Notes: generated from the sequence alone by a model not told the origin. A stretch of 64,000 bases of DNA from Methanobacteriota archaeon (GCA_020697715.1 JAEHCO010000001.1:892490-956489); one strand, 5' to 3'; shown: positions 6,314 to 41,400, counted from the first letter of the stretch. Translations and numbers: made by a program.

Positions 6314-9300
6314 CTAAGGTATCATCCAGGGATAGAATCCATTAGAGTATATCCAGTAAGCTTGACCGATCTGGAAAGCGGCTCCATCAGGCATGGGCTC
6401 GATACCGTAAGTTGACATATCATTGAACCTCTCGATGGTCATGACCATACCTCCAGATTCCACTTTCAGATTGCCTGCTGTATAACCCTCAGTATCTGAT
6501 GGGTAACCCACCATGTTCCAGCCTGGTTGCAGAGTGACGACAGTTCCTGATGGGGCGCTTCCAGTCTCGCCCATTGTAAGAAGATTATCTCCATCATTTC
6601 TAGTCACATACATCCAGACACCCATTGTATTATCCACATCGGGCATATCTTGAGGTAAGCCAGCTGCTGCCTGTGCCTTATCATAGCACTTCCAATGGTC
6701 AATTGCATCTGCAGGATCATACCACATTATCGAGCTCCAGGTAGTTCCTCCATCTCCAAAGATGGTATCATTGAATATTATGTCCACTGAATTGTCCACA
6801 TTCACTGGGAATGATACAAATCTCCATCCTACATCCATCCCCATGTCATATGGAATCTCTGGAAGGAAGCCAGCTATGTAGATGGCAGTTGCATATGATC
6901 CTGCCCAATTGCCAGAAGAATCCTGCCCTCTGACCCATAGCTTATTCCATTCTCCAATGCTCCAGCCGGCTGTTACAGCCCCTGGTATGAAGACAGTGAC
7001 ATCCTCATTGATCTCATCCCACACTCCATCCACGACATTCATTGGAGTTCCTGGCCAGTTTGCGGTTTCTCCCAAGCACCATTCAGCTGCAGTGATGTAT
7101 GACTCACCAGTCATTGAATCATCAATTATGGCATTAAGGTTCACTGAGTCTCCTGGTTCTATGGGATTGATATCGCTAACAACACTTCCCGGCACTGTGA
7201 TCGGGGGCGTGTTATCCACGCCATGTTCTATTGTGAAGTCCATTGATTCTGAATAATCACTAAGAACTGCATAAGTTGCAGTTCCAAGGCCGACTACTTT
7301 TATTCTGTAAGTGTCCGCATCTTCAAGGGCGCTTATGTCCCATACCAAGCTTGTTTGACTACCTGGCAATGGAGCACCGTTTATCTTGATATATTCCTGA
7401 CCGCTGTTCGGGCTGTAATAGACATCTACGGACGTAGCATCAGATATTGTCCAATCAATTGTGTAAGTGGTCGTGGACGTGATGGTCTCCCCACCAATTG
7501 GATTTACTAAATCCGCGGTAGGATGGTTCCCGCCAAGTAGCCACTGAATTGTTTCATCAAGTAATTCCGCTCTCTCCAGGTCGATGGTCGGTGGAGATCC
7601 AGCTGGATCCCAGTTCCCGCCTGTATTTGTCGAATCGATCATATTGTGTGAGAAGGCATTGAAGGCTATCCTGGCCGTACCTGCAGCTCCACCACCTGTC
7701 TGCGCAACTCCCGCGGCAGTTCCACCATATTCATGATCATTATAATCCCATATGGCAACCCCTGGGGCTATGGCATTTATATCATCTGGCCAGAACCTGC
7801 TTGAGCCGTAAACATCCTGCTCAAGGTCCATATTGTCCAAGTTGTAAATATCATTCAGAACATGTCCATTATCTATAACCATGAAAGGATCTGTGCCTGG
7901 TGGACCACCACCGCCTTCATCTCCACCACCGCCATCAGCATCGTCTCCGAGGTATTCGGCCTTCAGATAGTCCTCACACCAGGTGACATCGGGATCTGTT
8001 CCAACTAAACTCATATCCCATGCTATGTCCTGACCCACTATGTAGGCCATTGGAACTGTTCCTTGGCTGGTCAATGGCTGGTCGAGATAACCTGCCAGTG
8101 CCTCTCTGTCATCAGCACTCAATTGAGGGAATCCTTCAGATGGGACCCAAATGATCATGGAAGCCTGATTAAGATCCTCGGTCGATGGAGAACCCAATAC
8201 ATTCATATCCCAATGACTGTAGGTCCATCCAGTGTATTCCAAATTATTCATCCAGTCCAGTTCATAGGGTGAGCCATCTAATGGAGATATACTGCCTATG
8301 TCGTCATCGACCAGCATTATCAGTGGCCCTCCGGTCGTGGCACTTCTGGTGCTGAATGTGTAATATCCTCCTCCATAGTCATCATAGGTGGATCTTCCAT
8401 ACATATCGGCGGATTCCACCCAGAACTCGTATTTCGTATCTCCCAAGAGTCCTGTCATTGGTATCTGATGATCCATGACGAGGTGATCATCATGAATAAT
8501 TGTCCATGTAGGCGAGCCAAACACTCTGTAATACACAGTGCTATTCGCATTTTCATCGGTATCCCAGGTCATTATGGTAGACACTCCAGATATCTCACTT
8601 GCAAATACATTTGATATGACTGGCTCATGAATATCAATTAATGCATATGCTATGGAGTCATGAATAGGAGATGTATCTGAATAAGTGGTGGTTATGGTCT
8701 CACCGTCACTGACCTGTAATTTTCCATCTCCTGGCGCTGCGATCCCCATATCTGTTAATATAGAGCCAGTATAAACACTTGAATTGAAGTCCAGGACATT
8801 CAATGTGACGATCTCTGAATCCCCACTAACACTTCCTGTGATCGTTATATCAACTGTAGGAGGAAAGCTATTGGTATCCTCCAATCTGAAATTTATGATA
8901 TCCGAATCATCATAGACAGATCGATCCATCTGAATAAGACCATGGCCATCATCGAAGTTCCCTGTCGCGACCAGGGCGAAGTTCTGAGGACCTATTGCGA
9001 TGTTCGAAGCATCGATCCTGATGGTGTAAATACCTGGAGATGGAATATTCAGATATGCGCATTCCACATTGTTCAATATATCATATGAACCATTGAACAT
9101 GGATTCTCCACCTGAGAAGACATTTCCCTTGTATTCCATTGCGCCAGGTGCGATCAATGTCAGATCCAGATCATTGACCAGTGCCTTTGCGGCTGCTGGA
9201 TCTCCTTGATAATCGGACCAGACCAAAGATATCTTCAATGGCTCAGAGGCATCTGTAACACTGATCTCATATTCCATATAGTCTCCAGTGACCATGCCCT

Positions 9301-11080
9301 GGGATTGATCAATGACCATCATTTCTTTTGAATCTCCTATGAAGTAAAGGCTATTATCCAGATGGATCCTGCCCCATCCCTCGTCCATATTGGGGATATC
9401 CGGGGTTCCAATGTCAACAGCCCCGTTTATCATGGTAGCTTTGAGAAGAGCCGCGGACGGACTCCATCCATTGGCATTTACAGGATATCCTTTAGGATAC
9501 CATCCTTCTCTGTAATATTGGCGGACCATGGCAGCTGCTCCACCTGCTGCGGCTGTTGCCCAGCTTGTTCCCTGCATTGTTTGATATCCGCCGCCTCCAT
9601 CAACTGACTGAACTGATTCACCAGGAACCACGATGTCTGGCTTGATACGGCCATCCATCGCAGGCCCTCTACTGCTGAATGCTGATACAGTGATCCCATC
9701 ACTGCTGGCCGAGCCAACTCCTATCACATTCTTTGATTCGGCCTGGCAATCTATAGTGTATCCTGATGGTCCATCACCGCCTACTGACCAGAACATGGAG
9801 AAATCCTGACTATCATAGACGTATGAGTCGATCATGACACATTGATCCCTGTATCCTGAACCACCACCCCAGCTATTGCTCTGTATCTTTGAATCGTAAT
9901 TATCTTCTGTGAATTTGAATAGATCATTATAGTAATCCTCGGGCGGGTATACATATTGCCATTCAAGGATATCAGGTGTCGCTGCATCATCTTCTCTCAT
10001 TATGTCCTGCATCACGATCTCCGCCATGAAAGCATGACCATCATATGTACCAGGATTCCAAATTCCATAAGGTGCTCCATCTCCTGCTATGACACCGGCT
10101 GCGAAGCTTCCGTGAAAGGCTGAACCTGATTCATCCCCTAATTGGCCATCTGCACCTTCGGGAACATAGTTAGCCTTGACCTTGAGATAATTGCCTGGAA
10201 TGCCATATACCGCCCCATTGAAACTATCATGATCAATATCTGAAAGCCCAATTCCCTCTGCAATACCCGAATCTGCGATAGTGACGACCTCTCCGCGGCC
10301 ATTAATGCCCTGTGCATGAAGTGGGCGGGTCGTACTTCCGGATTGGACCAGTGGAACATTATCATCATTCGAAGGCTCTGCGAGTACAAATTCAGAGACC
10401 CATTTGACCTCTGGCCTTGATATTAAATAACTTATCAAGGAAGCATCAACTTCCGCATTTACAGTATTGACTTCTCTGGAATTCGCAATGCCCAGTATAT
10501 TTCCACCAGAGTTTTTCGTGATCTCCCTCACGATGTCGCCATTGGACGAGCCCGGGAATAATGTGATACTTAATTTCACGATTCCAGTCGCTGTTGCCAA
10601 TGCCGGGTCCACTTTGTAAGCTGGCTCGTAGCTTCCGCACCATCTGATATCCTGAAGTGCATTGACCTTGCCTTTGGCATTCGTGTTCATCGTGACGAGA
10701 AGTGCATTGTCAGGAATATAACTGACAATGGTCGCCCCTGCCTTTATTATACCACTCTTCCACTCCTCGGTTATCTTGCCAGGAGCTTGGATGATATATG
10801 GCTGTTCCACCCAGGGAGAATTACCATAGGAATTTGCAGATGCGATGATTGGAGCATTACCGCCAATTGGGTCGAATGATCCATATTTCAATTTGATCAT
10901 ACCATTCGAATTGCCAGTTGGTATGGCATCATCAATATCATTGGTAGGGACAATATCATCATGACTATTATCTGCAAAACCAATTGTTATAGATGAGAAT
11001 ATAAGAGAAATAATTATAAAACCTACAAATAACCTGTTAACACTACCTAGCCCACTTTTTCTGTTCCCCATATCTTCCAT
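6314..11080 (-). CDS. Secreted S8 subtilase-family serine peptidase, multidomain (array gene 1)
   Basis: Signal peptide and prodomain; triad motifs IADSG / FHGSFAAG / QGTSWAT; FSSRGP..DGRIKPD; FN3/Ig-like domains; shared C-terminal GWN domain. Confidence 0.85.
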   Translation of the reverse strand: MEDMGNRKSGLGSVNRLFVGFIIISLIFSSITIGFADNSHDDIVPTNDIDDAIPTGNSNGMIKLKYGSFDPIGGNAPIIASANSYGNSPWVEQPYIIQAPGKITEEWKSGIIKAGATIVSYIPDNALLVTMNTNAKGKVNALQDIRWCGSYEPAYKVDPALATATGIVKLSITLFPGSSNGDIVREITKNSGGNILGIANSREVNTVNAEVDASLISYLISRPEVKWVSEFVLAEPSNDDNVPLVQSGSTTRPLHAQGINGRGEVVTIADSGIAEGIGLSDIDHDSFNGAVYGIPGNYLKVKANYVPEGADGQLGDESGSAFHGSFAAGVIAGDGAPYGIWNPGTYDGHAFMAEIVMQDIMREDDAATPDILEWQYVYPPEDYYNDLFKFTEDNYDSKIQSNSWGGGSGYRDQCVMIDSYVYDSQDFSMFWSVGGDGPSGYTIDCQAESKNVIGVGSASSDGITVSAFSSRGPAMDGRIKPDIVVPGESVQSVDGGGGYQTMQGTSWATAAAGGAAAMVRQYYREGWYPKGYPVNANGWSPSAALLKATMINGAVDIGTPDIPNMDEGWGRIHLDNSLYFIGDSKEMMVIDQSQGMVTGDYMEYEISVTDASEPLKISLVWSDYQGDPAAAKALVNDLDLTLIAPGAMEYKGNVFSGGESMFNGSYDILNNVECAYLNIPSPGIYTIRIDASNIAIGPQNFALVATGNFDDGHGLIQMDRSVYDDSDIINFRLEDTNSFPPTVDITITGSVSGDSEIVTLNVLDFNSSVYTGSILTDMGIAAPGDGKLQVSDGETITTTYSDTSPIHDSIAYALIDIHEPVISNVFASEISGVSTIMTWDTDENANSTVYYRVFGSPTWTIIHDDHLVMDHQIPMTGLLGDTKYEFWVESADMYGRSTYDDYGGGYYTFSTRSATTGGPLIMLVDDDIGSISPLDGSPYELDWMNNLEYTGWTYSHWDMNVLGSPSTEDLNQASMIIWVPSEGFPQLSADDREALAGYLDQPLTSQGTVPMAYIVGQDIAWDMSLVGTDPDVTWCEDYLKAEYLGDDADGGGGDEGGGGPPGTDPFMVIDNGHVLNDIYNLDNMDLEQDVYGSSRFWPDDINAIAPGVAIWDYNDHEYGGTAAGVAQTGGGAAGTARIAFNAFSHNMIDSTNTGGNWDPAGSPPTIDLERAELLDETIQWLLGGNHPTADLVNPIGGETITSTTTYTIDWTISDATSVDVYYSPNSGQEYIKINGAPLPGSQTSLVWDISALEDADTYRIKVVGLGTATYAVLSDYSESMDFTIEHGVDNTPPITVPGSVVSDINPIEPGDSVNLNAIIDDSMTGESYITAAEWCLGETANWPGTPMNVVDGVWDEINEDVTVFIPGAVTAGWSIGEWNKLWVRGQDSSGNWAGSYATAIYIAGFLPEIPYDMGMDVGWRFVSFPVNVDNSVDIIFNDTIFGDGGTTWSSIMWYDPADAIDHWKCYDKAQAAAGLPQDMPDVDNTMGVWMYVTRNDGDNLLTMGETGSAPSGTVVTLQPGWNMVGYPSDTEGYTAGNLKVESGGMVMTIERFNDMSTYGIEPMPDGAAFQIGQAYWIYSNGFYPWMIP

Positions 11081-11328: not shown

Positions 11329-14300
11329 CTATGGTATTATCCAGGCATATGCTCCTGTGGAGTACACCCAGTATCCTTCACCGATCTGGAATTGATCGAT
11401 GTCCGGCATGACCTCTGTGTTATAGGCTGCTGCTCCATTGAAGCGCTCCACTGCTGTGACTGAGCCACCAGAATCTGTTTTCAGATCTCCGGCTGTGTAT
11501 CCCTCGACCTGTGATGGGAAACCGACCATGTTCCAGCCAGCCACCAGGTTTATCGTAGTACCTGATGGATTGACGCCAGTTACCTTGATAAAGCCATCTC
11601 CCACAGTGTCCACGAATATCCAGGCTCCCATTTCCTCATCCATGTAATTGTGGTTGATTCCAGGGAATGCCGAGATGTAGGTCTTCCAGTTGCTGCCGGG
11701 AGCTGCACTTCCATCATAGTGGTGGAAAGTGTTCCAGGTGGTGTCACCATCTGTATCCATCAGTGCATTTGGCAGAGATGTATCTCCAGGTAGTAATGGA
11801 AGTGAAACGAAGTTCCAGCCCGCTACTACAGGTATCAGATATTCCGGTGCTGTCACGGTGACTGTAACCGTAGTTACAGGTCCCCAACCATTTGGTCCGT
11901 TCCCACGAACACTCAAGATATGATCGCCAGCACCCCATGAGGACGTGTCAATGACCACTGTGAAGTTATCGAGTGGTCCATCCCAGAACAGATCGAATGG
12001 TGATGCTATTGCATTAGCCAGTCCTATGCCAGGATCGACAGTGTCGAACCATTCCGCACCATATAGGAATGGGAACACATTCTCGTCAACGGTCGTATTG
12101 TCCACGATATCCGCAGTTAGGGTGATAATGCCTGTTCCTATGGTTATGCTCAGTGGTGTTACACCATCAGCCAGCACATTGAAGGCTCCGGGTAGTGTAT
12201 CGAACTTGGAAACAATTCCCGAGTCTATACTATCGTATGTGCCATCTGTGGCAACCACGTAGTACCAGCAGTTCTCTGGATCCAGTATCTCATTGGTATC
12301 CACATACTGTGATGTACCAGCTCCAACGTTTCCAACCAGGCTGTATGGCCCTTCATACCACTCGCTATTTGCCTCATCGGCCTTGTAGATGTCATAACCA
12401 GTCACATCATATGCTCCAGCACCATCATCACTTGACAATGTCCATGTCAGTATCAGATCATCCGGACTTGTCGTGACGATAGTTTCCACATACATCTCAT
12501 CAATGCTGACCACATCTGCTGTAGTGGTGTCAGCTGGGTCGGTATCTCGGACTGCAACATAGAATGCTCCATTGAATCCAGCACCCAGGTCATATGAGAA
12601 TTGATCAAGACCTGGTGTTGAGTCTGTGGCCATTAGGGTCTCCTCACCTGCGAATGCTCCTGTCTGGGAGTAGTAATACTCGAAGGTATCATCGCCAGTG
12701 AATCCCGTGGTCGCGTAGAACATGTGTGTGCTGCCTGCAGGTACACCCTGGAACTGCCACTGATGCTCTAATGAATAAGAGGATCCTGCAGCACCATAAT
12801 CGTAGGTCACCCATACGTAGTCAAAGTATACTGCATCTGCTCCGCCTGGATCATTGTTGATGTAATGGACATCCAATGCCGCTATCTCCGCAATGGTGTC
12901 AACGCCATCTGCAAAAATATTATAGCTGGCCACTCGGTTATTATCACCATCGGTAGGCACAATACCTGTTCCCAACCAAGCACCTCCTTCGTTGATGGAG
13001 AATTCTACATCATTTGTGGCACCGTGGCCCGCCTGAGTAGAGAACTTCATCCAAAGGGTTGCTGCACTTACTGGATCGGGGTTTCCAGATGTGTCAAAAT
13101 TATCGATCCACATAATACCATTCTTGCCAATTGTGTTGGTTGTTCCGTCATCTCCATTGATCTGCGCGACAGTTGTTCCTGCTGTATCTCCAGCCTCTAT
13201 AACACTTGGCAGTGCATTGGCTGTTCCTCCGCCTGCTGAAAATAACTCAGTGATATCCTCTGTTACAGCATCTGCTGGCATCTGTGTCGCAGCATATGTG
13301 TTAACGATACCATTGTTTTCCACAGCTATATCACTGCTAGCTTGCTGGTAAAATGTTGATCCTGCACCTCCAGGCTGACTTAGAAGATCAGTTACTGGGC
13401 CAGGTGGCATCGAGTTCACAGTGTAGATATTGATCAATGTCTCATTGTTTATAGCCACTGCATCTCCTGGAAGCATGCTCATCACGGATATCTCGTACTC
13501 TGCCTCATCATCGAAGTCATACATCCAGTTCATCTGCTCGGTCTCGAGTTGAGCCAGCGTCAGAGTGGTGTCTTTAACATTAGTGTAGAGTGAACCCAGG
13601 CCTGCTGTCTTCTTCGATATCCTTATATCGTCAACATTCCAGCCAGTTCCACCACCTGCAAAGTCATCACAACCAGCCCAGTATCTTACCCAGACTGTAT
13701 TGTCACCAAGCCATGGTGTCAGGTCCACAGAATCTTCTACGAATCCTCCGCTTGCTCCGGTGAATGCATCAGCACCTCCGTCTCCATCTATTGGATTCGC
13801 ATATCCAGTTCCCAAAGCAGCATCATAGCCATTGGTCGATACGACCCTTGTCCATGCGGCTCCATCGGCACTGACATCCAGAACTCCGCCGTCCCAGCCA
13901 GCTTCCCAATCGTAGTTGTGGAACCATTTCCACTCTGCACTTGTGAAAGCTCCGGTCAGATCAAAGGGTCCGAATTCCAGTTTGTAGTCATGAGGTCCAG
14001 CCCCATAATTACCATTGCCGAAGTCCCATGATGTTGCCGGGCTATTGGCTGCATTCTCTCTCAGATCCCAACCAGGTGCGGCTGGTCCATCAGGTGTCCA
14101 GCCTGGTAGTATTCCACTTTCACAATCATCATTGAGTAGGTATGTGGTAGAGCCGAGATGATTGATCTCGATCTTTACTGGGAAAGGCCCTTGAGTTGTT
14201 GTTCCCGCATTCCCTATGGTTGCATCGATGGTTCTTGGTCCCCATTCATATGTGTTTCCATCGACCATTGAAGTGATACCGAAGCATCCGACATCCATTG

Positions 14301-16224
14301 GTGGTGCGATGTATATGTCCAGAGGGGCGATATTGTTGTTCTCATTGGATTCAGATATCGCATCAAGGTGATCTGGTATTATACAGAGTGCGTAATATCC
14401 CTCGTATCCTGTAGTATCCCAGTTGTAGGTGACATCGGATGTGCCTCCAGATGGTATGGTCCCTGCATTCTCCGTGCCTATTAGGGCACCGCCACTGGAT
14501 GGGTCTCCATCATATACGCCTACAATGACATCTGAACCGGTAGATGAACGTCCAGCATTGCTTACTGTTATGTGAACTGGGATGACATCTCCGCTATTTG
14601 GTGATGCAGAGTAGTTCAACCATGCATGAATGTATGATGGATTGTCCCACCATCCAGTTGGATAATTCGCAGGATTCAATGTAACTTCTCCTGTGCCATA
14701 ATCTAGGAAATAATCATCCCATCCGCCAGTACCAACTTCGAACATCTGCCACCAATCCCATGGGTCTGAACCGAACTCATTCTCATCTGCGAATATGGTG
14801 CAGTCAATTATATTGGAATATCCTAGGTTGAAAGATGTCTGGAACTCCACCATTGGGCCATATACTGTTTCATTGACCACTGCTAATGTTGGTGAATCAT
14901 AGTAGACATCTGATGCCTGGATGGCAACATCTGGAGTATTGTCTGCAAAGTCATAATAGACCGCCTGATGAACTTCCATTGTCTCTTCATCGTATATCGC
15001 GGCTATGACACCCAGCTCATCCAGGTTCCATGCGGGCATTGCCCCTCCACCAAGGTTAGCAGCTCTTACTACTGGGTTCCTGGAAAAGAATACATCCTGA
15101 TAGGTTATTGTTTCTCCCCTGTTAGTAAGTGTACCTTCAAGGGCCTCATCTGTACCCACCCACTGTTGCATGGAATATCTTATATTGTAATCCTTGACAG
15201 TGTATCCGGGACCTGTTGGTCCTAATGCATTGTTCCTCTGTACAACAGTGTTATAATCATCAACTATGAAGAAAGTGGTAACGAACTTGTCTGAATCATA
15301 ACCAAGGTCTCCCATGTTCCCAATTGATGATATGGCCAATGAGAAAGTCCCCTCCTCAAGGACATCGTCATATGAACCGTTCAATGTCATTGTCAGGTCA
15401 CTTGGTGTCGCGATCCTTGCATCCAAGTCTGTTTGAATGAACTCTGGAACTGCTCCTCCATCTCCATCCCATCTTCCTGTTGATGTTGAATCACAATCTG
15501 AGTAATAAGCACCACTGCCGTCATACTTTCCTCCAGCTCCACCATCTATGGCGAAACCACCGGCATTCATCAGATCATTTGCATCTCCTGCTGTATCTGA
15601 ATTAAGGTAAGCGGGGAATGTGTCCAGTCCATAAGGAGCTGTATAGTACTCTCTCATAGCAGCATCATCTGCTGGATCTCCTCCGAGAAGCCAATTGAAC
15701 TCTCCTGGAGCGAATTCCCAATCCTGCAATCCCCAATAAGATGCGCTGACGATGTTTCCATCCATCCAGCTGTTCAATTCCATAAGAGCGACATCATTCC
15801 TTGAGTAGGCCGCAGCCTGGTTACCTGCATATAGATACGCTGGTACAAAGGAACCATTGTCAATTCCAGATGCTATCTCAAGCAGAACGGTCCTGCCTGT
15901 GTCCACATCTGGGAACAGGGAATTTATTTGAGGAGGTTCTTCAGCTGCCAATATGACATTATCTCCCTCACTTGCTTTATAATCCGCTCTGTACTCGGTC
16001 AATTGTCTTATCCCGGGTGCAGAATCCAGAACAGTGCTTCCAGCCTTCATAGGTATTCTGTCAGCAACTATCTGCCGTGAAAGGTCAATGGATTCAGCAC
16101 TTACCAATGAATCTGAATTCGTAATACCAGATCCAATAAGTCCTGTAAGTGATGCCATTAGCATCACGATGATCAATATGCTTGCCCCAATTTTCTTATT
16201 TGTATGCATGCCCATTATATCCAT
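11329..16224 (-). CDS. Secreted non-S8 multidomain protein: Omp28-like domain, CARDB, jelly-roll domain, FN3-like domain and shared C-terminal domain (array gene 2)
   Basis: Start placed at MDIMG (GGAGGGA upstream); signal peptide; CARDB motif (ISESNENNN); GWDGG/WNVDDIRI jelly-roll; C-terminal GWNFVSLP...GWNMVGFP...GEGYWV. Confidence 0.75.
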   Translation of the reverse strand: MDIMGMHTNKKIGASILIIVMLMASLTGLIGSGITNSDSLVSAESIDLSRQIVADRIPMKAGSTVLDSAPGIRQLTEYRADYKASEGDNVILAAEEPPQINSLFPDVDTGRTVLLEIASGIDNGSFVPAYLYAGNQAAAYSRNDVALMELNSWMDGNIVSASYWGLQDWEFAPGEFNWLLGGDPADDAAMREYYTAPYGLDTFPAYLNSDTAGDANDLMNAGGFAIDGGAGGKYDGSGAYYSDCDSTSTGRWDGDGGAVPEFIQTDLDARIATPSDLTMTLNGSYDDVLEEGTFSLAISSIGNMGDLGYDSDKFVTTFFIVDDYNTVVQRNNALGPTGPGYTVKDYNIRYSMQQWVGTDEALEGTLTNRGETITYQDVFFSRNPVVRAANLGGGAMPAWNLDELGVIAAIYDEETMEVHQAVYYDFADNTPDVAIQASDVYYDSPTLAVVNETVYGPMVEFQTSFNLGYSNIIDCTIFADENEFGSDPWDWWQMFEVGTGGWDDYFLDYGTGEVTLNPANYPTGWWDNPSYIHAWLNYSASPNSGDVIPVHITVSNAGRSSTGSDVIVGVYDGDPSSGGALIGTENAGTIPSGGTSDVTYNWDTTGYEGYYALCIIPDHLDAISESNENNNIAPLDIYIAPPMDVGCFGITSMVDGNTYEWGPRTIDATIGNAGTTTQGPFPVKIEINHLGSTTYLLNDDCESGILPGWTPDGPAAPGWDLRENAANSPATSWDFGNGNYGAGPHDYKLEFGPFDLTGAFTSAEWKWFHNYDWEAGWDGGVLDVSADGAAWTRVVSTNGYDAALGTGYANPIDGDGGADAFTGASGGFVEDSVDLTPWLGDNTVWVRYWAGCDDFAGGGTGWNVDDIRISKKTAGLGSLYTNVKDTTLTLAQLETEQMNWMYDFDDEAEYEISVMSMLPGDAVAINNETLINIYTVNSMPPGPVTDLLSQPGGAGSTFYQQASSDIAVENNGIVNTYAATQMPADAVTEDITELFSAGGGTANALPSVIEAGDTAGTTVAQINGDDGTTNTIGKNGIMWIDNFDTSGNPDPVSAATLWMKFSTQAGHGATNDVEFSINEGGAWLGTGIVPTDGDNNRVASYNIFADGVDTIAEIAALDVHYINNDPGGADAVYFDYVWVTYDYGAAGSSYSLEHQWQFQGVPAGSTHMFYATTGFTGDDTFEYYYSQTGAFAGEETLMATDSTPGLDQFSYDLGAGFNGAFYVAVRDTDPADTTTADVVSIDEMYVETIVTTSPDDLILTWTLSSDDGAGAYDVTGYDIYKADEANSEWYEGPYSLVGNVGAGTSQYVDTNEILDPENCWYYVVATDGTYDSIDSGIVSKFDTLPGAFNVLADGVTPLSITIGTGIITLTADIVDNTTVDENVFPFLYGAEWFDTVDPGIGLANAIASPFDLFWDGPLDNFTVVIDTSSWGAGDHILSVRGNGPNGWGPVTTVTVTVTAPEYLIPVVAGWNFVSLPLLPGDTSLPNALMDTDGDTTWNTFHHYDGSAAPGSNWKTYISAFPGINHNYMDEEMGAWIFVDTVGDGFIKVTGVNPSGTTINLVAGWNMVGFPSQVEGYTAGDLKTDSGGSVTAVERFNGAAAYNTEVMPDIDQFQIGEGYWVYSTGAYAWIIP

Positions 16225-16602
16225 TCCTACTCCCTCCAAGATATCACGAATAAAGATGTGATATTGTTTTTATAAATCTCATATCTTGATTTCGAAGTTG
16301 AAAATATATATTGGAAGTAGGGCTATAAATAAGTATTCACTTAAAATATCATGGGTTTTTTATAATATATATATGTTTCTATATGATATATATATATCTT
16401 TGGGTTATCAATTGTTTGGTTGATTGAATTCAATATTATGAAAATTATATATATTGTTAATCTATTATACTATATATATTTTCCTATGGGATGTATTTAT
16501 ATGTTTCGCTCCGGCATTTTAACAATAGTTACTCGTCAGTTTTAAGAAAGAATCAACCCTCTATGCTGTTTGTAAAGGCTTGATAAAATAAAAAGTAAAA
16601 TG

Positions 16603-16644: not shown

Positions 16645-17061
16645 CTTACCAGTCCACAGTCCATATTGTTCCACTGCCGACCTTCACCCAGTACGCCTCA
16701 CCACGCTGTAGGACATAGTTATTCGCCAGTGTGATGATATTGTATGGCCCAGCACCGTAGCCCTCAACAGAGGTTGCTCCAGTATCTGCTTTGAGATCGC
16801 CAACATCATATGATGAATCATCCTGGGCGGGATAACCAATTAGGTTCCAACCAGTGTTCAGAGTGATGTCTGTATTTGTTGGTTCTTGACCCTCTCCGAC
16901 ACTCAGGAGTGCTCCGGCTGTTGTGAGCTTCACCCACATGCCCTTCGCATTGTCCACGGATGGCATATCCTGTGCTAATCCTGCAGCGAACTGTGCCTTG
17001 TCATAGGTCTTCCAATGGTCAGAAGCATCTGCTGGATCGTACCAGCAAACAACTTCCCATG
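16645..17061. repeat. ~417 bp exact direct repeat, copy 1 (copy 2 at 33314-33730)
   Basis: Line-by-line comparison shows identity up to the first mismatch at 17062/33731; similarity continues beyond it. Confidence 0.85.
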
Positions 17062-20524: not shown

Positions 20525-20737
20525 TTTACCTTCTCCTTCCCTACACATCGAGAACCCTTGCCAGGTTCTCGAAAATGTAAATTCGATTTCCTTTGTTCAT
20601 TAAGTATTGGATAAAAAATAAATGTATAACATGCTATAAATAATTAGTTGTATAGTTTTTTCAACTAATTTTTTACTATTAATGTTTTTTGATAGAACCA
20701 TATAAAATAGTTTTGTCTATTTTTATAAATTGAAAAT

Positions 20738-26859: not shown

Positions 26860-26884
26860 ATGAGAGAGTCGAAAGTCCTCTCAT
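26860..26884 (-). terminator. Hairpin terminator after array gene 5
   Basis: ATGAGAGAGTCGAAAGTCCTCTCAT, an imperfect member of the same hairpin family. Confidence 0.65.
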
Positions 26885-26905
26885 TCATATTTCGCTATGG
26901 CAGTT

Positions 26906-28702: not shown

Positions 28703-28894
28703 TTTCCAACTCCTCATTCATTTATCACTAAATGACGTCCTATATATTTAAAAATGTCCTATATATAAGTATTGAGCAAAACACCGACTTATACACCATC
28801 GCATTAACAATCGATGACCATCCATCTCGGTGCAGATTCACAGATATGGAAAGTTAAATCAGTGTTGTGAAATTATGGATAAAAATTGAAAAAG

Positions 28895-28918
28895 TGAGAG
28901 AGCCCGAAAGCCCTCTCA
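28895..28918 (-). terminator. Hairpin terminator after array gene 6
   Basis: TGAGAGAGCCCGAAAGCCCTCTCA. Confidence 0.7.
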
Positions 28919-28940
28919 TTCATATTTCGTTATGGCAGCC

Positions 28941-33074: not shown

Positions 33075-33272
33075 CTTCAAACCTCTCCATTTAACGAATA
33101 AAGTGAATGTTGCCCACATCACTCCAACGATCTTAGTACATTTCCTATATTTTCAGAAATCCACATCGATTTATTTATAGTTAAGCTTTTTGGTATATAG
33201 TATATATAGATATGTAATTTGTATGATAAATAAGATATATTATCAGACGAATAATGTCAAAAATGTAAAAAT

Positions 33273-33296
33273 TGAGAGGGTTGTTAAGCCCTCTCA
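33273..33296 (-). terminator. Hairpin terminator after array gene 7
   Basis: TGAGAGGGTT-GTTA-AGCCCTCTCA. Confidence 0.7.
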
Positions 33297-33313
33297 TTTT
33301 GCTTTGTCAGTCG

Positions 33314-33730
33314 CTTACCAGTCCACAGTCCATATTGTTCCACTGCCGACCTTCACCCAGTACGCCTCACCACGCTGTAGGACATAGTTATTCGCCAGTG
33401 TGATGATATTGTATGGCCCAGCACCGTAGCCCTCAACAGAGGTTGCTCCAGTATCTGCTTTGAGATCGCCAACATCATATGATGAATCATCCTGGGCGGG
33501 ATAACCAATTAGGTTCCAACCAGTGTTCAGAGTGATGTCTGTATTTGTTGGTTCTTGACCCTCTCCGACACTCAGGAGTGCTCCGGCTGTTGTGAGCTTC
33601 ACCCACATGCCCTTCGCATTGTCCACGGATGGCATATCCTGTGCTAATCCTGCAGCGAACTGTGCCTTGTCATAGGTCTTCCAATGGTCAGAAGCATCTG
33701 CTGGATCGTACCAGCAAACAACTTCCCATG
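33314..33730. repeat. ~417 bp exact direct repeat, copy 2
   Basis: Identical to 16645-17061 by eye. Confidence 0.85.
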
Positions 33731-36700
33731 AGGTGTCACCATTACCCCAGTTCGCATCATCGAGAACTGTTAGGACATCTCCAGATGCTGTTATCGGGAA
33801 TGAGACAAAGACCCAATCCCCTGGCGCGGCTGTGCTGGTGTCGATGCCATATGGCACTGCTGGAGTTCCACCAGGCTCCTGCACAGCATTGGTGTTGGTA
33901 TCTTCATTGCCAAGGACATCCTCGCCCCTGACCACGTACCACCACAATGTTCCATCTGGTAGTCCTTTGTCCAGATCTGTGTATATGCCTGTGCCTGCTG
34001 GTACACTGGCTATGTAAGCTCCTGCATCCCATGGGCCAGCTGCATTATCAGCTCTATAAATGTTGTATTGAACCAGATCATCTGCTCCTGCTCCATCATC
34101 GCCGGATAAGGTCCAGTTGACAGTATTGTGATCATCTGGATTGGTTATCAGGGACCAGCTAAAGCCATCTATTCTGGTGTCGCGGGCTGTCGTGCCCCAT
34201 TCTATCGTACTACCACCCTGGCCTGTTCCTGCCACTACCAGGTAGTAATTGCAGGTCCATTCACTCGCATCAAGCTGGCTGGCTCCAAGTACATTTGTTG
34301 TGAATGTCGCCCTTTCCGCGGTAGGTGGTGAGCTTGTGGATGCGTATAATCTAACGACTATCGAGTCGCCCAGGTCCAACTGAGTTGCTGGTGGTGTCCA
34401 GGTAGCGGTGTTTATTCCTTCCGATGAAACTGTTCTTCCAGCAATACCAACTGCAGTTCCGGATGTGATCTCAGTCTCTACACCTCCACTGTCCCTCTGC
34501 CAGACCCTTATGCCTGCATAGACTGGAGCACGGTTACCCAGATTACCTCCGCTCTGCATTGTTGCTGACTGGGTGGTACCAAGTAAATTGGCTGCCAATC
34601 CATTGACATTGACTTCACTGGATACACCTCTCATGTATCTTGTCTCTATGGTCGAGTCACCAGGACCCCAGTACTCCACTGTTAGGTCGCTGGTCGATGC
34701 AACTCCTGCATCGACTATCGCGGTGTCTGTTACAGTAGCTGGTCCTGATCCGTCATCCGCGTCATCGTATGTCGCGGTAATGACATCATTGTGAGATACC
34801 TGGAGTATTCCTGCTCCATTGGTAGCTGATATCGTGATGGTTCCCTGGAATGTGCTGGTGTCATCTCCAGTTTCTGTGAGTGTAACAGTTTCAACACCAG
34901 TTTCTGTGTCACTGTCGATGTCCACGACAACGGTCTGAGGTGAGTTGGTGTTCGTATTGAGATCCCAGTCCATTACCTGGATCATCACTGTGTCCTCGCC
35001 AGCATATAATTCTTCATCTAGCTGAATAGAACCTTGAGAGGTGATTGGTATCATTCCACCAGATACGACAAGAGAGAAGTCCTGGGGGCCCTGGGCTACG
35101 TCCCCAGTTCGTCCATATACTTCCACTGTCCAGATACCGCTCTGTGGGTTCTGAACGAAGACATTTTCCAGATTGTTGAGGTCATCTCTGTGATCCGAGC
35201 CCCACTGGTTCGCTCCTGTTCCAGAAGCTGAGTAAAGGCTTGTCCACAAGCCATTGTTACCATAATATTCCACTCCACCTGGTGATATGACCTTCAGGTC
35301 TAGGTTATTGATCAATGCTCTTGCCGCATTGGTGGTTCCAAGTGCGGCAGGGTCTGTCCAGGCAAGTGAGATCTTCAATGGGTAAGTACCATCGACATAG
35401 GTCTGGCGTGAGTACATATTGCCTGAGTCCAGTGCCTGTGGGTATTCATCAATTTGATGATACTGAGCTCCCAGATTATACATGTATTCCATGTCTGGTG
35501 TTCCCCAGCCCTGCTCATTTCTTGTTGCATCTCCCAGATCATACTGGTATGCATCTGCCACCAAGAGGGCCTTGATAGTGCTTGAATAAGGAAGTTCTCC
35601 CAATGGGTTTGTATCGAAGTAATTCTCCTGCCACATATCATAGGCGATAACAGCTGAACCAGCTACGATGGGCGTCGCGCCACTTGTTCCACCAAAGTCA
35701 TCATAATAATCACCACTAGCATAGCCGCCAACTCTGTTGTCCACCGTGTATATCCAGTCAAATGGCGCGCACATCTCCGGCTTCTGTCTGCCATCTGCGG
35801 CTGGTCCTCTTGAAGGTGTATTTCCCTGTGATTGCAAAAGCCACTCATCATCCGCCATGTTCGCGGTGTTCTTGTGGAATATGGCTCCTATTGCCATGAC
35901 GTTCTTTGCACAGGCATCTTCGCTGAGATCTCCCTCGGCGGTTCCATCATTACCATTGCCGTTTGCCCAGAGAGATAGGACCTTTGGATAATCCACTGCT
36001 GCCTGATCATCAGCTGCAGCATTTATCTGATATAGTCCATCCTGTGTTCCGGAGCTCCATGAATTTGATTGGACGATGCCGTTCATCCCGGCACTTCCTT
36101 CATTGAAATTTCCATTCCAGAGATTTTCAATGGAAGTGTATCTTCCAGTTCCCCAGTCGGAGAAAACACCCACTGCTTCATAAGCAATTCCAAGTGCGTC
36201 GATGTCACCAGCTCCATTTCCGAAGACGATACCTGATGTGCAGGTGCCGTGATCATCATTTGATACTGATCCATCTGTGTATATGACATTAGCGAGATCC
36301 GGATGGCCAATGTCTATTCCATTGTCCTGAACTTCGGCCAGCATACCAGCGCCAGTGAATCCCACTGCTTCGGTGGTATCATGACCCATGAATGTATTGG
36401 ATGTGATAAGATTCATATATGCTTCTGGCTCCGCATCATGGCCGACAGATCTGACCTCTTGGATCTCAGCGATGGAATTGATCTTGGATGCGTCTATCGT
36501 GCATCTTAGGTATGTGAAACCTGTATTGACCTTGATATCACTGGCTCCCAGTTCCTCCAGGGATGCCATTGTTCTGAGTATTCCAGCATCTTCATGCAGG
36601 ACCACTATGACATCGGTCATGCCGGACTTTCCATCCAGGTCTGGATTGATCTTCATTGAGGAGATATATGGTTGAATATTATTCGAATATGTCATAAGAA

Positions 36701-36947
36701 GTCCATTTGATGATATGTCTCCCTTGACCAGGTAGGTTCCATCGTTCATGTAGTTCAGGAATTCAATACCTGTACTTTCGATGAAGCTCCTCTGCTCGCC
36801 ATTCGGTAGTTCCGAAAAGCTAACCAGGAAGTACCCATCATCCGTGTCCACATCTGCTAAAGTGATCGAGCTTGCTGGTATCAGTAAACTAATTGATATC
36901 ACAGCTACAAATATCAAGCCCACAAATCTATTGCCCATTTTTTCCAT
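33315..36947 (-). CDS. Secreted S8 serine peptidase, multidomain (array gene 7)
   Basis: Triad VQDNG / DHGTCTSG / GGTSGATP; oxyanion ANGNG; PSRGPAADGRQKP; shared C-terminal domain. Confidence 0.88.
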   Translation of the reverse strand: MEKMGNRFVGLIFVAVISISLLIPASSITLADVDTDDGYFLVSFSELPNGEQRSFIESTGIEFLNYMNDGTYLVKGDISSNGLLMTYSNNIQPYISSMKINPDLDGKSGMTDVIVVLHEDAGILRTMASLEELGASDIKVNTGFTYLRCTIDASKINSIAEIQEVRSVGHDAEPEAYMNLITSNTFMGHDTTEAVGFTGAGMLAEVQDNGIDIGHPDLANVIYTDGSVSNDDHGTCTSGIVFGNGAGDIDALGIAYEAVGVFSDWGTGRYTSIENLWNGNFNEGSAGMNGIVQSNSWSSGTQDGLYQINAAADDQAAVDYPKVLSLWANGNGNDGTAEGDLSEDACAKNVMAIGAIFHKNTANMADDEWLLQSQGNTPSRGPAADGRQKPEMCAPFDWIYTVDNRVGGYASGDYYDDFGGTSGATPIVAGSAVIAYDMWQENYFDTNPLGELPYSSTIKALLVADAYQYDLGDATRNEQGWGTPDMEYMYNLGAQYHQIDEYPQALDSGNMYSRQTYVDGTYPLKISLAWTDPAALGTTNAARALINNLDLKVISPGGVEYYGNNGLWTSLYSASGTGANQWGSDHRDDLNNLENVFVQNPQSGIWTVEVYGRTGDVAQGPQDFSLVVSGGMIPITSQGSIQLDEELYAGEDTVMIQVMDWDLNTNTNSPQTVVVDIDSDTETGVETVTLTETGDDTSTFQGTITISATNGAGILQVSHNDVITATYDDADDGSGPATVTDTAIVDAGVASTSDLTVEYWGPGDSTIETRYMRGVSSEVNVNGLAANLLGTTQSATMQSGGNLGNRAPVYAGIRVWQRDSGGVETEITSGTAVGIAGRTVSSEGINTATWTPPATQLDLGDSIVVRLYASTSSPPTAERATFTTNVLGASQLDASEWTCNYYLVVAGTGQGGSTIEWGTTARDTRIDGFSWSLITNPDDHNTVNWTLSGDDGAGADDLVQYNIYRADNAAGPWDAGAYIASVPAGTGIYTDLDKGLPDGTLWWYVVRGEDVLGNEDTNTNAVQEPGGTPAVPYGIDTSTAAPGDWVFVSFPITASGDVLTVLDDANWGNGDTSWEVVCWYDPADASDHWKTYDKAQFAAGLAQDMPSVDNAKGMWVKLTTAGALLSVGEGQEPTNTDITLNTGWNLIGYPAQDDSSYDVGDLKADTGATSVEGYGAGPYNIITLANNYVLQRGEAYWVKVGSGTIWTVDW

Positions 36948-37187: not shown

Positions 37188-37218
37188 TTGTTCGATGGCT
37201 AATCTTAATTTGTTGCTC

Positions 37219-40200
37219 CTACATCACAAAGAGCATTACCCAGTCCCAATCATCCATCCATCCAGGTATGGTTCCAGCTGGATCAATGTAGAACTCTCCC
37301 CAAGGAGTCAGGTATTGATTGCCGGGTATTCCTCCTTCAAATACACCCAGATCCTGCATTCCCATGGAATTGAGGGTCAGCATCTCAGATCCCATTCCGG
37401 GAGTTATGCTGAAGGTTCCATCAAAGGGCATTCCAGGTGGAGGTGGGAAGAACATTACGTCACTGGACCACCAATCCATTGGCCCATCTGCATGTTCGAA
37501 ATATCCCTGTGCCAGCATACCATCCCTGTCAAGGAATACATATTCTGCCAGGAAGGGAACTCCTATTGGAACCGGACTTCCGTCTGGAGGACTGGTCATC
37601 ATGACCTCATAAGGCACACCACAAACAACATCCTGTATTGACATGCCAGCTCCAACATTGACATAGGTGTAATTGTAGCCATTGTTGCCGTATGGCATCT
37701 CGAAGGTGGCATTGACGAATATAACATCTCCATCCGTGTAGTTCATGATGTCCACGGAGTACTGTCCTGTTGGTATTGTCACTGTGTTTCTGGTATTCCA
37801 TGCTCCCAAATTCCTGTCGAACCATGTCACTGCCACATCCGCGCCTGTTGATTGCAGTGGATTGTAGAAACCACCGCTGAACCCATCATATAGATACACT
37901 GTTCCAAATACTGGGTATGGGTCAGAGATCACGGCTGGAGCATTCAATTGCCACAGTACATTGGATGAGGAATACACCCAGTATGCATTTCCGTGTGTCA
38001 TCAGCACTGTGTCGAGCATCACTGTATCGGTAATCTTATAGGGCTGGCCAGTATCGTAATATGATATCATGGTCACCTGTGGGGGTAATGTATCGGATGC
38101 CATCTGCGAGATCATATCTGGATATCCAATAAGATTCCAGCCAGCATACAGCATGAACTCCGCATCCGCTGGGTCGTCGCCGCCAATACCAGTTGTCAGA
38201 TATTGATCGCCAGTATTGCCTGTTATGTGTATCCATAATCCCATCGTATTGTCAAGGTCTGGCATGGTCTGAACACCCGGGAAGTCCTTGTCGTAGAACT
38301 TCCAGTGATCATTGAAATCTGTTGGGTCATACCATTTCAAATGGTCCCAAGTTATGCCTCCATCACCCCATGCATGCAGTGAGTCATCCAGCACCGTGGT
38401 GGCCGGCCCGTTCATCTCAGATGGGAAGGATATGAACCTCCATGCCGGCCATGGTCCTGCTGGATCGGATATCGTTATATTGTATGGGTCTGGCCCTGGT
38501 ATGATGATGCCAGGAGCCTCAGGTATTATCAATCTTGATGGTGTCGAATCATTATCATATCCAAGAATGAACTCTGGAGCTGGTTTATCATAATGGATGG
38601 TCGCGGCAAGGTAGTTGACACTCACCTGCATTCTGGATGTTGTCTCGTACACACCCCATCTAATTCTATTTCCTGAGACATAGTTTCCTGGGTCAACGGT
38701 TATGCTCCTGGTCATCGTGATATCAACGCCAGTGGCTCCATACATCGTGGTCCCGATGGGCTCCCAGTATGATCCGGTGGATTGGTCCTCGACCCATATT
38801 TGATAGTCGCTGTCATCATCGCCCTGACCGACGAATGTCAGGTCTATTTGGGTGATATAAGCTGGATCCTCCAGCACCTCCATCGAGTTCCATATGAATA
38901 TCTCATCCTGGTTGCCAGGGTCTACCGATACGGCCCAGTCACTGTCCGTAACAGATGCGGAAACATACTGAGCATCCGTGAACTCAGGGGCTGAATTGTA
39001 ATCAGGTCCTGTTCCCACAGAGCATGAGTTGGTGTCCATGAAGTAGCAATAATCCGGCGGTGTTGCCTCGGTATCTCCAACATAATCATATGTCGTGGAA
39101 CCTGCTCCGCCACCGCCAGCCGTTGCATCAAGCCAGATCTCAACAAATACGCGATCACCTGCTGATATGGTGGTCGCAGGTATGGTATCTGTCCAGCTGA
39201 ATTCCGTGTATGAATATCTGGCATACACGTCTGTCGGGCATTGTGCTGGAGTTGGGTTCAGAAGTGTCATTGAGGGGTACTCGTAGATCTTGGCATACAG
39301 TGTGCCGGAGACATCCTCCGTGGTAACTCTCCCTTCAATGAAGAAATGCCAGTCACCATCAACATCCGTATCCTGTGCATATGGATCAGTCATCCATCCT
39401 ACATCCCCTACATGATATTGACCTGCAGCAGGTATCGGGCCTGTTGTGTTCGTCATGATACTTGCTTGATCTGGATCTGCTGGTAACAGGGACATATCTA
39501 TCCCGAAGGAGTTCTCCACATGCAGATAATATTGCTCACCAACATAGATCGTTATCGAGTAAATATTTCCCCAGTTGGCATCCGAGTCAAGTGCATGCAC
39601 AAATATAGTATGCACTTCTCCAGCCAGCCAGCCCTCAGCAGATATGTCAATTGTGGCATATCCATCCTCATTGGGGCTGTCATATGTACCATCAGATGGT
39701 GTGACCAATGTGCCAGTTCCATCTACTCCTACAGTATCAATGAAATATTCAGCATCAACTATATTTTGGATATCGGAGAAAGATGTGTAAACTGTTGTCG
39801 TGGCCGCTCCACCTGTTGGATTCGGGTCAGCGTATCCTGAAGCAACTGGCCCGCCACCTATATCGAAGCTGCCGCTTACCACCAGGGCGAAGTCCTGATC
39901 GGTAGCTGGTGTAGCTGAGACAGAGTCCTGCTGTATGTCCGTTCCATTGACATAGATACTCCACTGGCCGATCTCTGGTGTCTGGACATTGACACATTCC
40001 ACATTGTTTAGTGTATCTGCAACTGGGACTGGAGAGGGAAATGCCCATCCTCCTACGAACAAGTTGCCATTATACACTAATCCACTTGGAGAAATAACTG
40101 TAAGATCTATATCATTTATCAGTGCTTTTCCAGTACCTGTGTTCGAAGGTGCGGCCACATCTGTCCAGGCCGTAGTTATCTTCAATGGCTGTGAGACACT

Positions 40201-41400
40201 GTTTATGAAGATAGTATCATATAACTGACTGATTCCAGTTTCAAGAAGGATATTCTGATCATCATAATAAATATCGAATCCAGGCTCTATCATATTGGTC
40301 AAATTCACTCTGCCCCATCCCTCATCGTTGTTAGGGATATCGGATGTTGCCATATCGGTCGCACCATTGATCATCGCGGCTCTTGATATTGCGGGACTGG
40401 GCATAGCTCCGTTCACATCATTGTAATACTGTGCAAAGACCGCTACAGCACCAGTTCCGATGGCTGCTGATCCTCCTGTTCCTGTTGTATATTGATAATC
40501 TGCATTGATCGCCTCATTCCCTGTAACAGCCCCTGGATAGTGGGATGTCACTCCAGAGCCCCAAGACGCTGGAGCTACAAGATCAGGCTTTATTCTACCA
40601 TCAGCAGTGGGCCCAGTCGGGGATACAGAATATATCTCTTCAATATTGTCTGCATCTAAACTCTTGTGAGGTTTGTATCCCTCGCTCACAGCTATTGCCA
40701 GGCTGTTCTTTCCGCAGGCACTTTCCATCACATCTGCATTTCCGGGGGCCATAATGTTCAGTAATGGCTGGTCTCCTGGTGTTGTAGAATCTGCATCTCT
40801 GGCCGCCGTATCTATCTTATTGGCATTCAAACCATATTCACCAATTGCCCCGCCTCCCCATGAATTGGATAGAGCAAAGGTTCCTCTTTGACTGGCATCA
40901 GTGAATACATCGGCGATATCTCCGTTGAACCATGCAGCGCCATCGCCAAAGACCCGCTCGGTTATTATGCTAGCTCCTGGAGCCACACCAAGGCCGTAGA
41001 GCTTTCCATCCACTGGGTCAAATTGACCACTGGATCCATCTCCAGCCATCCAACTGACGAAAGGAGTGCTCATTCCATAGGAATCCTCGGCGACACCATC
41101 TGAGGCATCGACCTCGCACCAGTCAACCCAATGGTCAACTCTTCCTGCAAAGTCAGTGAAAAGGGCGGGTGTACCACCATCTCCAGTGTCCAGGCCAGTA
41201 CCCACCTCTCCTATGAGGATACCCGTACCATCGTATCCTAATCCTTGTGCCCTGGTCGCTCCTGTTATATCTGTTAGAACTTCCCCCGCACTGACATTCT
41301 CCGTTGTATCGAAGGTGGTAAAAGGAACCACCATCATCAAACTCAAAATTATTACTATCAACTTACCCACATTTGCTGCTCTATCTTCCATTAATGTCAT
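37219..41400 (-). CDS. Secreted S8-fold pseudo-peptidase (triad lost, no prodomain) with the shared GWN domain and an extra C-terminal extension (array gene 8)
   Basis: S8 scaffold kept (SNSWGG, GPTADGRIKPDL, EGWGRVNL), but the triad positions read GEVGTG / YGMSTP / TGTGGSAA. The start may be 41391, which has better RBS spacing. Confidence 0.8.
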   Translation of the reverse strand: MTLMEDRAANVGKLIVIILSLMMVVPFTTFDTTENVSAGEVLTDITGATRAQGLGYDGTGILIGEVGTGLDTGDGGTPALFTDFAGRVDHWVDWCEVDASDGVAEDSYGMSTPFVSWMAGDGSSGQFDPVDGKLYGLGVAPGASIITERVFGDGAAWFNGDIADVFTDASQRGTFALSNSWGGGAIGEYGLNANKIDTAARDADSTTPGDQPLLNIMAPGNADVMESACGKNSLAIAVSEGYKPHKSLDADNIEEIYSVSPTGPTADGRIKPDLVAPASWGSGVTSHYPGAVTGNEAINADYQYTTGTGGSAAIGTGAVAVFAQYYNDVNGAMPSPAISRAAMINGATDMATSDIPNNDEGWGRVNLTNMIEPGFDIYYDDQNILLETGISQLYDTIFINSVSQPLKITTAWTDVAAPSNTGTGKALINDIDLTVISPSGLVYNGNLFVGGWAFPSPVPVADTLNNVECVNVQTPEIGQWSIYVNGTDIQQDSVSATPATDQDFALVVSGSFDIGGGPVASGYADPNPTGGAATTTVYTSFSDIQNIVDAEYFIDTVGVDGTGTLVTPSDGTYDSPNEDGYATIDISAEGWLAGEVHTIFVHALDSDANWGNIYSITIYVGEQYYLHVENSFGIDMSLLPADPDQASIMTNTTGPIPAAGQYHVGDVGWMTDPYAQDTDVDGDWHFFIEGRVTTEDVSGTLYAKIYEYPSMTLLNPTPAQCPTDVYARYSYTEFSWTDTIPATTISAGDRVFVEIWLDATAGGGGAGSTTYDYVGDTEATPPDYCYFMDTNSCSVGTGPDYNSAPEFTDAQYVSASVTDSDWAVSVDPGNQDEIFIWNSMEVLEDPAYITQIDLTFVGQGDDDSDYQIWVEDQSTGSYWEPIGTTMYGATGVDITMTRSITVDPGNYVSGNRIRWGVYETTSRMQVSVNYLAATIHYDKPAPEFILGYDNDSTPSRLIIPEAPGIIIPGPDPYNITISDPAGPWPAWRFISFPSEMNGPATTVLDDSLHAWGDGGITWDHLKWYDPTDFNDHWKFYDKDFPGVQTMPDLDNTMGLWIHITGNTGDQYLTTGIGGDDPADAEFMLYAGWNLIGYPDMISQMASDTLPPQVTMISYYDTGQPYKITDTVMLDTVLMTHGNAYWVYSSSNVLWQLNAPAVISDPYPVFGTVYLYDGFSGGFYNPLQSTGADVAVTWFDRNLGAWNTRNTVTIPTGQYSVDIMNYTDGDVIFVNATFEMPYGNNGYNYTYVNVGAGMSIQDVVCGVPYEVMMTSPPDGSPVPIGVPFLAEYVFLDRDGMLAQGYFEHADGPMDWWSSDVMFFPPPPGMPFDGTFSITPGMGSEMLTLNSMGMQDLGVFEGGIPGNQYLTPWGEFYIDPAGTIPGWMDDWDWVMLFVM

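Follow-up and report, generated by a model that had tools for sequence, protein, structure and literature searches.

We have analysed a 64,000-nt window of the genome of an uncultured Thermoplasmata archaeon (2.12 Mb in 34 contigs, 93.8% complete; hereafter the source genome) in which an array of eight large open reading frames (ORFs), as called by an ORF finder, occupies positions 6314-41400, all on the minus strand and separated by spacers of 146-406 nt. Every one of the eight products carries a copy of the same internally duplicated domain, referred to below as the tail domain or tail, which forms the C-terminus of seven of them. The ORFs and domains are as follows; the ORF ends are counted from the first possible start codon, and the real starts may lie a few codons downstream.

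6314-11080, minus strand: gene 1, S8 protease of 1588 amino acids (aa), catalytic triad intact, with an Ig/FN3-type stalk (Pfam Peptidase_S8, E 2.1e-30)
6317-6853, minus strand: tail domain of gene 1, residues 1413-1588, with 0 residues after it
11329-16239, minus strand: gene 2, 1636 aa, CARDB plus a MAM-like stretch, non-enzymatic according to Pfam and NCBIfam scans
11332-11841, minus strand: tail domain of gene 2, residues 1467-1636, terminal
16646-20548, minus strand: gene 3, S8 protease of 1300 aa, triad intact (Pfam S8, E 2.3e-41)
16649-17173, minus strand: tail domain of gene 3, terminal
20778-26759, minus strand: gene 4, divergent S8-type protease of 1993 aa, D/H/S present, with partial NCBIfam subtilase matches and no Pfam match
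20781-21305, minus strand: tail domain of gene 4, terminal
26906-28717, minus strand: gene 5, headless, 603 aa, with a unique N-terminal part of ~190 aa, an FN3-like and Ig-like stalk and the tail
26909-27451, minus strand: tail domain of gene 5, terminal, structure modelled
28941-33122, minus strand: gene 6, S8 protease of 1393 aa, triad intact (Pfam S8, E 1.7e-32)
28944-29486, minus strand: tail domain of gene 6, terminal
33315-36947, minus strand: gene 7, divergent S8-type protease of 1210 aa, D/H/S present, no Pfam match
33318-33842, minus strand: tail domain of gene 7, terminal
37219-41400, minus strand: gene 8, pseudo-protease of 1393 aa (partial Pfam S8 match, E 6e-13)
37942-38463, minus strand: tail domain of gene 8, internal, residues 980-1153
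37222-37941, minus strand: extension of gene 8 after the tail domain, 240 aa, without a membrane helix by hydropathy

The tail domain stops 0-1 residues before the stop codon in genes 1-7, while in gene 8 another 240 residues follow it. The alignment of the eight copies has 194 columns, 28 of them invariant, with a mean column identity of 61%, and all eight proteins match the profile built for the domain with E values from 1e-66 to 6e-90. The two halves of the domain are themselves homologous (hhalign of half 1 against half 2: 95.4% probability, E 1.6e-8, 64 columns), each following the pattern GWNxxxxP ... Y ... G.(A)YW, and the conserved positions are chiefly Trp, Tyr, Gly, Asn and Pro. In an AlphaFold2 model computed from a 44-row alignment the ~175 residues form two homologous alpha+beta lobes of ~85 residues each, with a predicted local distance difference test score (pLDDT) of 93.7 and a predicted template modelling score (pTM) of 0.89, while a single lobe modelled alone from 97 sequences gave a pLDDT of 89.8. 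Judged by these models, the tail is a genuine folded domain.

There is no counterpart of this domain in the collections that were searched. Pfam and NCBIfam scans of the eight proteins gave no match to the tail at E<=0.01, a profile search of all PDB sequences returned 0 matches at E<=1, and Foldseek found nothing in the PDB at E<=0.001 for either the whole domain or the single lobe. An exhaustive VIA-align search, for which the tool's stated noise level is Z 7-8, reached at best Z 5.2 with the whole domain and Z 5.5 with the single lobe. The best match of the single lobe was 4ys2_A (Z 5.5, root-mean-square deviation 2.9 Å over 65 residues, below the noise level), and the top 12 rows of that search were all RCK_C/TrkA_C domains at Z 4.0-5.5. 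The RCK_C/TrkA_C domains (4ys2_A and 7b5u_B among them) thus offer the best and most consistent fold resemblance per lobe, and RCK_C also has paired lobes; they are, however, parts of cytoplasmic regulators whereas the tail is exported, the match is weak, and Pfam TrkA_C has no match in the eight proteins at E<=0.01. We take the resemblance as a weak lead on the topology of the modelled lobe and not as membership of that family. All 30 of the 30 matches in the ESM Atlas belong to unnamed, archaeal-dominated clusters without Pfam families, and our literature searches turned up no published description of the tail. It constitutes a domain family that is not catalogued and has no solved relative, and would merit a new Pfam-type family.

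What precedes the tail differs from gene to gene. When the six protease-like regions are aligned, the S8 catalytic D, H and S and the oxyanion Asn are all seen to be kept in genes 1, 3, 4, 6 and 7, and the triad to be lost in gene 8 (D to G, H to M and S to G), where the oxyanion Asn alone is retained; Pfam Peptidase_S8 itself is matched in genes 1, 3, 6 and, partly, 8 only. Genes 3-7 carry FN3-like and Ig-like stalk modules immediately upstream of the tail, and neither Pfam nor NCBIfam scans find an enzyme domain in gene 2. The 240-aa extension of gene 8 has neither a Pfam match nor a membrane helix; a homologous stretch, 246 aa long, occupies the corresponding place in locus L055 of a public Thermoplasmata metagenome-assembled genome (MAG). 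Gene 5 shares 71% identity with gene 6 where its residues 218-603 align with residues 1011-1393 of the latter, and its first ~190 mature residues match no family; gene 5 is a copy, without a head, of gene 6's stalk-and-tail cassette. Genes 5 and 6 correspond to entries of 598 and 1377 aa in the metagenome library described below. In a Kyte-Doolittle scan of genes 1-8 the only hydrophobic segment of each protein is N-terminal, the C-terminus being free of any; it is from this lone N-terminal segment that the export of the array products follows as the probable course.

Much of an earlier, sequence-only reading of the locus is borne out by these results. It had described eight co-oriented genes, a shared, internally duplicated domain of ~170 aa that is terminal in seven products and internal in that of gene 8, five S8 proteases beside one dead protease, one product made of binding modules only (gene 2, with CARDB and the MAM-like stretch) and the lack of any C-terminal transmembrane helix, and all of this agrees with what we find, the domain being slightly longer at ~175 aa. 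The signal peptide that it gave to each protein holds as one N-terminal hydrophobic segment per protein, a putative signal peptide. Its description of gene 5 as an Omp28-like protein has to be given up: the gene has no match to any Pfam family, Omp28 included, even at E<=5, and its identity to the gene 6 cassette speaks for a different origin.

The genes of the array share long stretches at 60-82% nucleotide identity. At their 3' ends, genes 3 and 7 share a tract of 417 nt without a single difference (16645-17061 and 33314-33730); this tract begins at the stop codon and spans most of the tail, and the identity decays upstream, which points to a recent gene conversion confined to the tail domain. 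A search for sequencing runs covering 26800-36700 listed none, of RNA or otherwise. A congeneric genome (G406) likewise has at least five carriers of the domain in a row within 20 kb (C11:278140-297755). The array looks like the product of tandem duplication and gene conversion of protease genes, and not like a dedicated multi-subunit machine.

A profile scan for carriers, which the sequence-only reading had proposed for this and related genomes, shows how far the tail extends beyond the array. The source genome has 27 carriers on 7 contigs, eight of them in the array and a ninth ~28 kb upstream of the window. The domain is present in 22/22 genomes of the same order, at 2-56 matches per genome, and in 19 of 401 genomes of an even sample of the phylum in which 8 candidates per genome were scored, the source genome being one of the 19; among the positives of this sample from outside the order, many candidates (58) occur in only one genome, which is of the same class. 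A metagenome library clustered at 50% identity contains 4831 matching representatives at E<=0.001 and 2101 at E<=1e-10, and a collection of species-representative genomes yielded 544 confirmed stretches, from which 78 public loci were kept for locus-level comparisons. The MAGs that contain these 78 all bear the label Thermoplasmata, Thermoplasmatota, Methanomassiliicoccales, Methanobacteriota or Candidatus Proteinoplasmatales. The names that the sources give to the carriers ('hypothetical', 'DUF11 domain-containing', 'choice-of-anchor J domain-containing') leave the tail unmentioned. By its distribution, the tail domain is a hallmark of the lineage and the standard tail of the secreted proteins of this order.

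The cargo is equally broad. Twelve of the 27 carriers in the source genome are of peptidase type (eight S8-type, the dead gene 8 included, two M28, one M14 and one C1), in three no domain can be recognised, and the remainder include a purple acid phosphatase, NosD/beta-helix, FG-GAP, DUF11, Big_5, LTD and InlB-type repeats and an SBP_bac_5 solute-binding protein. In relatives the heads extend to Amidase_3, Peripla_BP (periplasmic-binding-protein folds), C11 (clostripain), CARDB and PKD/DPPIV-type domains. The tail is found on about half of the obvious exo-peptidases of the source genome and on many adhesin-like proteins, and since the cargo is this varied the tail itself is probably not substrate-specific. 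According to one report (PMC9123169), sediment Thermoplasmata related to the source genome actively degrade detrital protein, labelled protein is taken up by Candidatus Proteinoplasmatales, and M14A, M26, M28F, S8A and U69 dominate the predicted extracellular peptidases of the latter; that profile matches the heads seen on the tail carriers. The exported carriers are extremely acidic: tail and cargo alike have a computed isoelectric point of ~4.05, whereas the median over the source genome's ORFs of at least 200 aa is 5.4.

The position of the domain within its carriers is strongly biased. It ends no more than 4 residues from the C-terminus in 24 of the 27 source-genome carriers, no more than 6 residues from it in 142 of the best 150 library representatives, and is terminal in 72 of 81 matches in the public MAG loci. 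Among the 142 such representatives the final residue is W in 64 and P in 56 (120 in all), and the copies ending in P and those ending in W form clades that are shared by different genomes. None of the 142 has a hydrophobic segment within its last 60 residues, nor does any of the 24 terminal carriers of the source genome have a C-terminal hydrophobic segment, while all 27 source-genome carriers have an N-terminal hydrophobic export segment in the hydropathy scan. The exceptions are instructive, for in 5 of the 9 non-terminal cases among the public loci the domain is followed by 75-96 residues that consist of a linker, a hydrophobic helix and a basic tail, and one source-genome carrier (C22:240136-246258) has the same build. 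This arrangement places the domain next to the membrane. Another of the exceptions is L055, with its 246-aa counterpart of the gene 8 extension.

Other means of fixing proteins to the surface exist in the same genome. It encodes an archaeosortase A (C11, ~130888-131766; 120 bits against a cut-off of 75), at least three of its proteins end in PGF followed by a helix and a basic tail, though the PGF_CTERM model itself gives no match in the genome at E<=0.1, and many of its large proteins have a C-terminal helix. The PGF-CTERM/archaeosortase A system resembles the tail in being an archaeal, C-terminal way of fixing exported proteins to the cell. The tail, however, has neither the membrane helix nor the basic cluster, genes 1-8 do not show the tripartite PGF-CTERM build, having no C-terminal hydrophobic segment, and the tail carriers are for this reason a class apart from the PGF-CTERM proteins, and a larger one. 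By sequence, then, the tail carriers would constitute a third, numerous class of surface protein in the source genome.

A partner for the tail was sought in several ways, the sequence-only reading having proposed a search for a co-occurring receptor or scaffold gene, and this search came back empty. The cohesin (PF00963) and dockerin (PF00404) profiles are absent from the source genome at E<=0.01, and clustering of all frames of at least 100 codons in the 78 public loci gave only shadow frames of carrier genes and further carriers as recurring sets; with no cohesin or dockerin match and no recurrent neighbour, there is no scaffold candidate. A two-copy complex prediction for the gene 5 tail scored 0.01 against a mark of 0.42, controls not having been run, and speaks neither for nor against self-association. 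One candidate partner was considered and rejected. An ArtC-like archaeosortase of 415 aa (C1:5365-6609; 65 bits, below the 100-bit cut-off) divergently adjoins a tail carrier (C1:1445-5242) and is found in 17 of the 22 genomes of the order; in the phylum sample, however, it occurs in 8/19 domain-positive and 38/382 domain-negative genomes and so does not track the domain, and the substrates of such enzymes need a helix that is absent from the tail.

We suggest, with confidence that is evenly balanced, that the tail is a non-covalent, membrane-proximal retention module of the cell envelope. The terminal position, the lack of any other C-terminal anchor and the helix-adjacent copies in the variants together point to the tail as lying at the cell-proximal base of stalked proteins, and from this we infer envelope binding and, with it, a target in the envelope. 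Carriers would first be exported through Sec, leaving the tail at the membrane-proximal base of a stalked surface protein, where it would bind a common envelope component, be it a surface protein or a glycolipid or glycan, and hydrolases and adhesin-like proteins would then stay on the cell instead of diffusing off. The array would, in this scheme, be a tandem block of exported, stalked proteins comprising five S8 proteases with intact triads, one pseudo-protease and two non-enzymatic products. By analogy, we think that the tail acts like the repeats of SLH, Listeria GW and LysM type, which are likewise tandem-repeat modules at the end of varied exoproteins that hold them on the cell without a membrane helix. 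In contrast to this likeness of build, we detected no homology between these modules and the tail, and the Pfam SLH profile has no match in the eight proteins at E<=0.01; to our knowledge, the ligands of these modules, namely peptidoglycan, secondary wall polymers and lipoteichoic acid, are not to be expected in Thermoplasmata. The docking, anchoring or sorting module of the sequence-only reading is therefore retained in kind, as a generic localisation module that is C-terminal on diverse exported cargo, lacks a C-terminal helix and belongs to no catalogued family; an assembly dedicated to the array is not supported. A known ligand-binding fold, combined with a mainly internal or cytoplasmic occurrence and no partner or envelope binding, would have spoken against such a module, and this combination is not clearly seen: the only fold resemblance, to the ligand-binding RCK_C, is weak (Z 5.5), and the domain is mostly C-terminal on exported proteins.

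Several observations weigh against retention at the envelope. No envelope ligand or receptor for the tail was identified, and the S-layer family PF07752 (Methanosarcina-type) is absent from the source genome at E<=0.01. In a tree of 165 distinct domain copies, one supported clade (0.92) is made up of six non-terminal copies (6/6) and includes an N-terminal copy on an SBP_bac_5 solute-binding protein of 1820 aa that has a C-terminal helix of its own; the existence of a conserved N-terminal or internal subfamily, one member of which has its own helix, implies that the domain functions independently of being the sole anchor. Tryptophan makes up 4.0-5.7% of the tail domain against 1.6-4.1% of the rest of each protein, and with conserved positions so rich in aromatic residues a glycan- or substrate-binding module would fit equally well. 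The tail is also strongly acidic, with a net charge of -9 to -22, so that plain electrostatic binding to anionic lipids is unlikely. Whether carriers are cleaved or released from the cell, finally, cannot be judged from sequence.

The aromatic residues lead directly to another explanation, that of a ligand- or substrate-binding module comparable to a carbohydrate-binding module, in which the cleft between the two lobes would bind an external polymer or particle (detrital glycan, a protein aggregate or mineral-bound organic matter) and would so target secreted enzymes and adhesins to food. The conserved Trp, Tyr, Gly, Asn and Pro positions would suit this role, as would the likeness of the lobes to RCK_C/TrkA_C domains (best Z 5.5), which clamp small ligands between paired lobes, the fact that the domain works in N-terminal, internal and tandem positions (tandem copies are seen in the library representatives P0013 and P0019), and the habit of the lineage's relatives, which PMC9123169 reports to be active degraders of protein in sediment. 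Those Z scores, however, lie under the noise level of 7-8, many of the carriers are non-enzymes and one is a membrane-anchored solute-binding protein, and the variants with a following helix put the domain beside the membrane, which is the worst site for meeting external particles, so that we consider this explanation unlikely. It is quite improbable, in our judgement, that the tail is a C-terminal sorting signal of an archaeal pathway, comparable to the C-terminal domain (CTD) of Bacteroidota's type IX secretion system (T9SS) or to sortase signals, in which a machine recognises the tail and then removes it or attaches it covalently. The parallel with the T9SS CTD is close in some respects: both form the very C-terminal end of exported hydrolases and adhesins, dozens to a genome, on highly diverse cargo and typically with Ig/FN3-type modules before them, and a signal read at the C-terminus would account for 142/150 terminal copies, for the W or P at the end of 120/142 of them and for P-ending and W-ending subtypes that are clades shared between genomes. 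The T9SS CTD, though, is a single beta-sandwich, whereas the tail is predicted to have two alpha+beta lobes and, at 175 residues, has roughly double the length of known sorting domains; it occurs in an archaeon, for which no outer membrane is known, and Por_Secre_tail has no match in the eight proteins at E<=0.01 in either Pfam or NCBIfam. A signal that requires a free C-terminus would moreover fail in the N-terminal, internal, tandem and helix-followed copies, and for a sorting machine there is no partner gene, the ArtC-like protein being non-specific and no neighbour recurrent.

The sequence-only reading had proposed, as a candidate, a 35-kb array dedicated to proteolysis, in which a dockerin-like module would join the proteins of all eight genes into a proteolytic complex at the surface, with the pseudo-protease of gene 8 and its extension as a possible base. 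As in the cellulosome, one module is indeed common to enzymes with different heads, the eight carriers are clustered and co-oriented, the congeneric genome G406 has its own row of carriers, and gene 8 has a dead head and an internal domain followed by an extension of 240 aa that is kept in L055. Yet the array holds only 8 of the 27 carriers, the other 19 lying elsewhere with unrelated cargo, so that carriers are scattered over 7 contigs of the genome and occur in 22/22 genomes of the order; a genome that is 93.8% complete has no cohesin or dockerin profile match and hence no scaffold candidate, and the array genes stand 146-406 nt apart, with a similarity that duplication and gene conversion explain. 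We regard such a complex as highly improbable. Of wider reach, and decidedly unlikely as we see it, is the idea that an as yet undescribed archaeal pathway for surface display uses the tail as its recognition tag, in the form either of a dedicated machine that would process or attach 1-3% of the proteome or of a new class of anchor for exoproteins on the glycolipid or lipoglycan coat of the wall-less Thermoplasmata; were it true, the P-ending, W-ending and non-terminal subtypes would address different sites. Retention at the envelope, in turn, would gain a practical side once its ligand is found, for the identity of the ligand would explain the surface organisation of these archaea, and their surface proteome would be recognisable in sequence data by a simple marker, the tail, which could also serve as a new display tag.

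The flanks of the array hold ordinary archaeal housekeeping genes, namely those for archaeosine tRNA-guanine transglycosylase, ribosomal protein L15e, RFC and a HypB/UreG-type GTPase. At 44929-46407 and 46418-50767, on the plus strand, lie two adjacent genes for products of 492 and 1449 aa, both with N-terminal zinc ribbons; the larger product is mostly coiled coil, with partial SMC/Rad50-type matches well under their cut-offs. The window runs to the end of contig C11. Near the window's other end, a plus-strand gene at 51-1265 joins a citrate-synthase C-terminal domain and a CoA-ligase domain in one protein, and is adjoined at 1272-3500, on the same strand, by a gene for an isocitrate dehydrogenase of the monomeric type (PF03971, 1261 bits), a type that is mainly bacterial.

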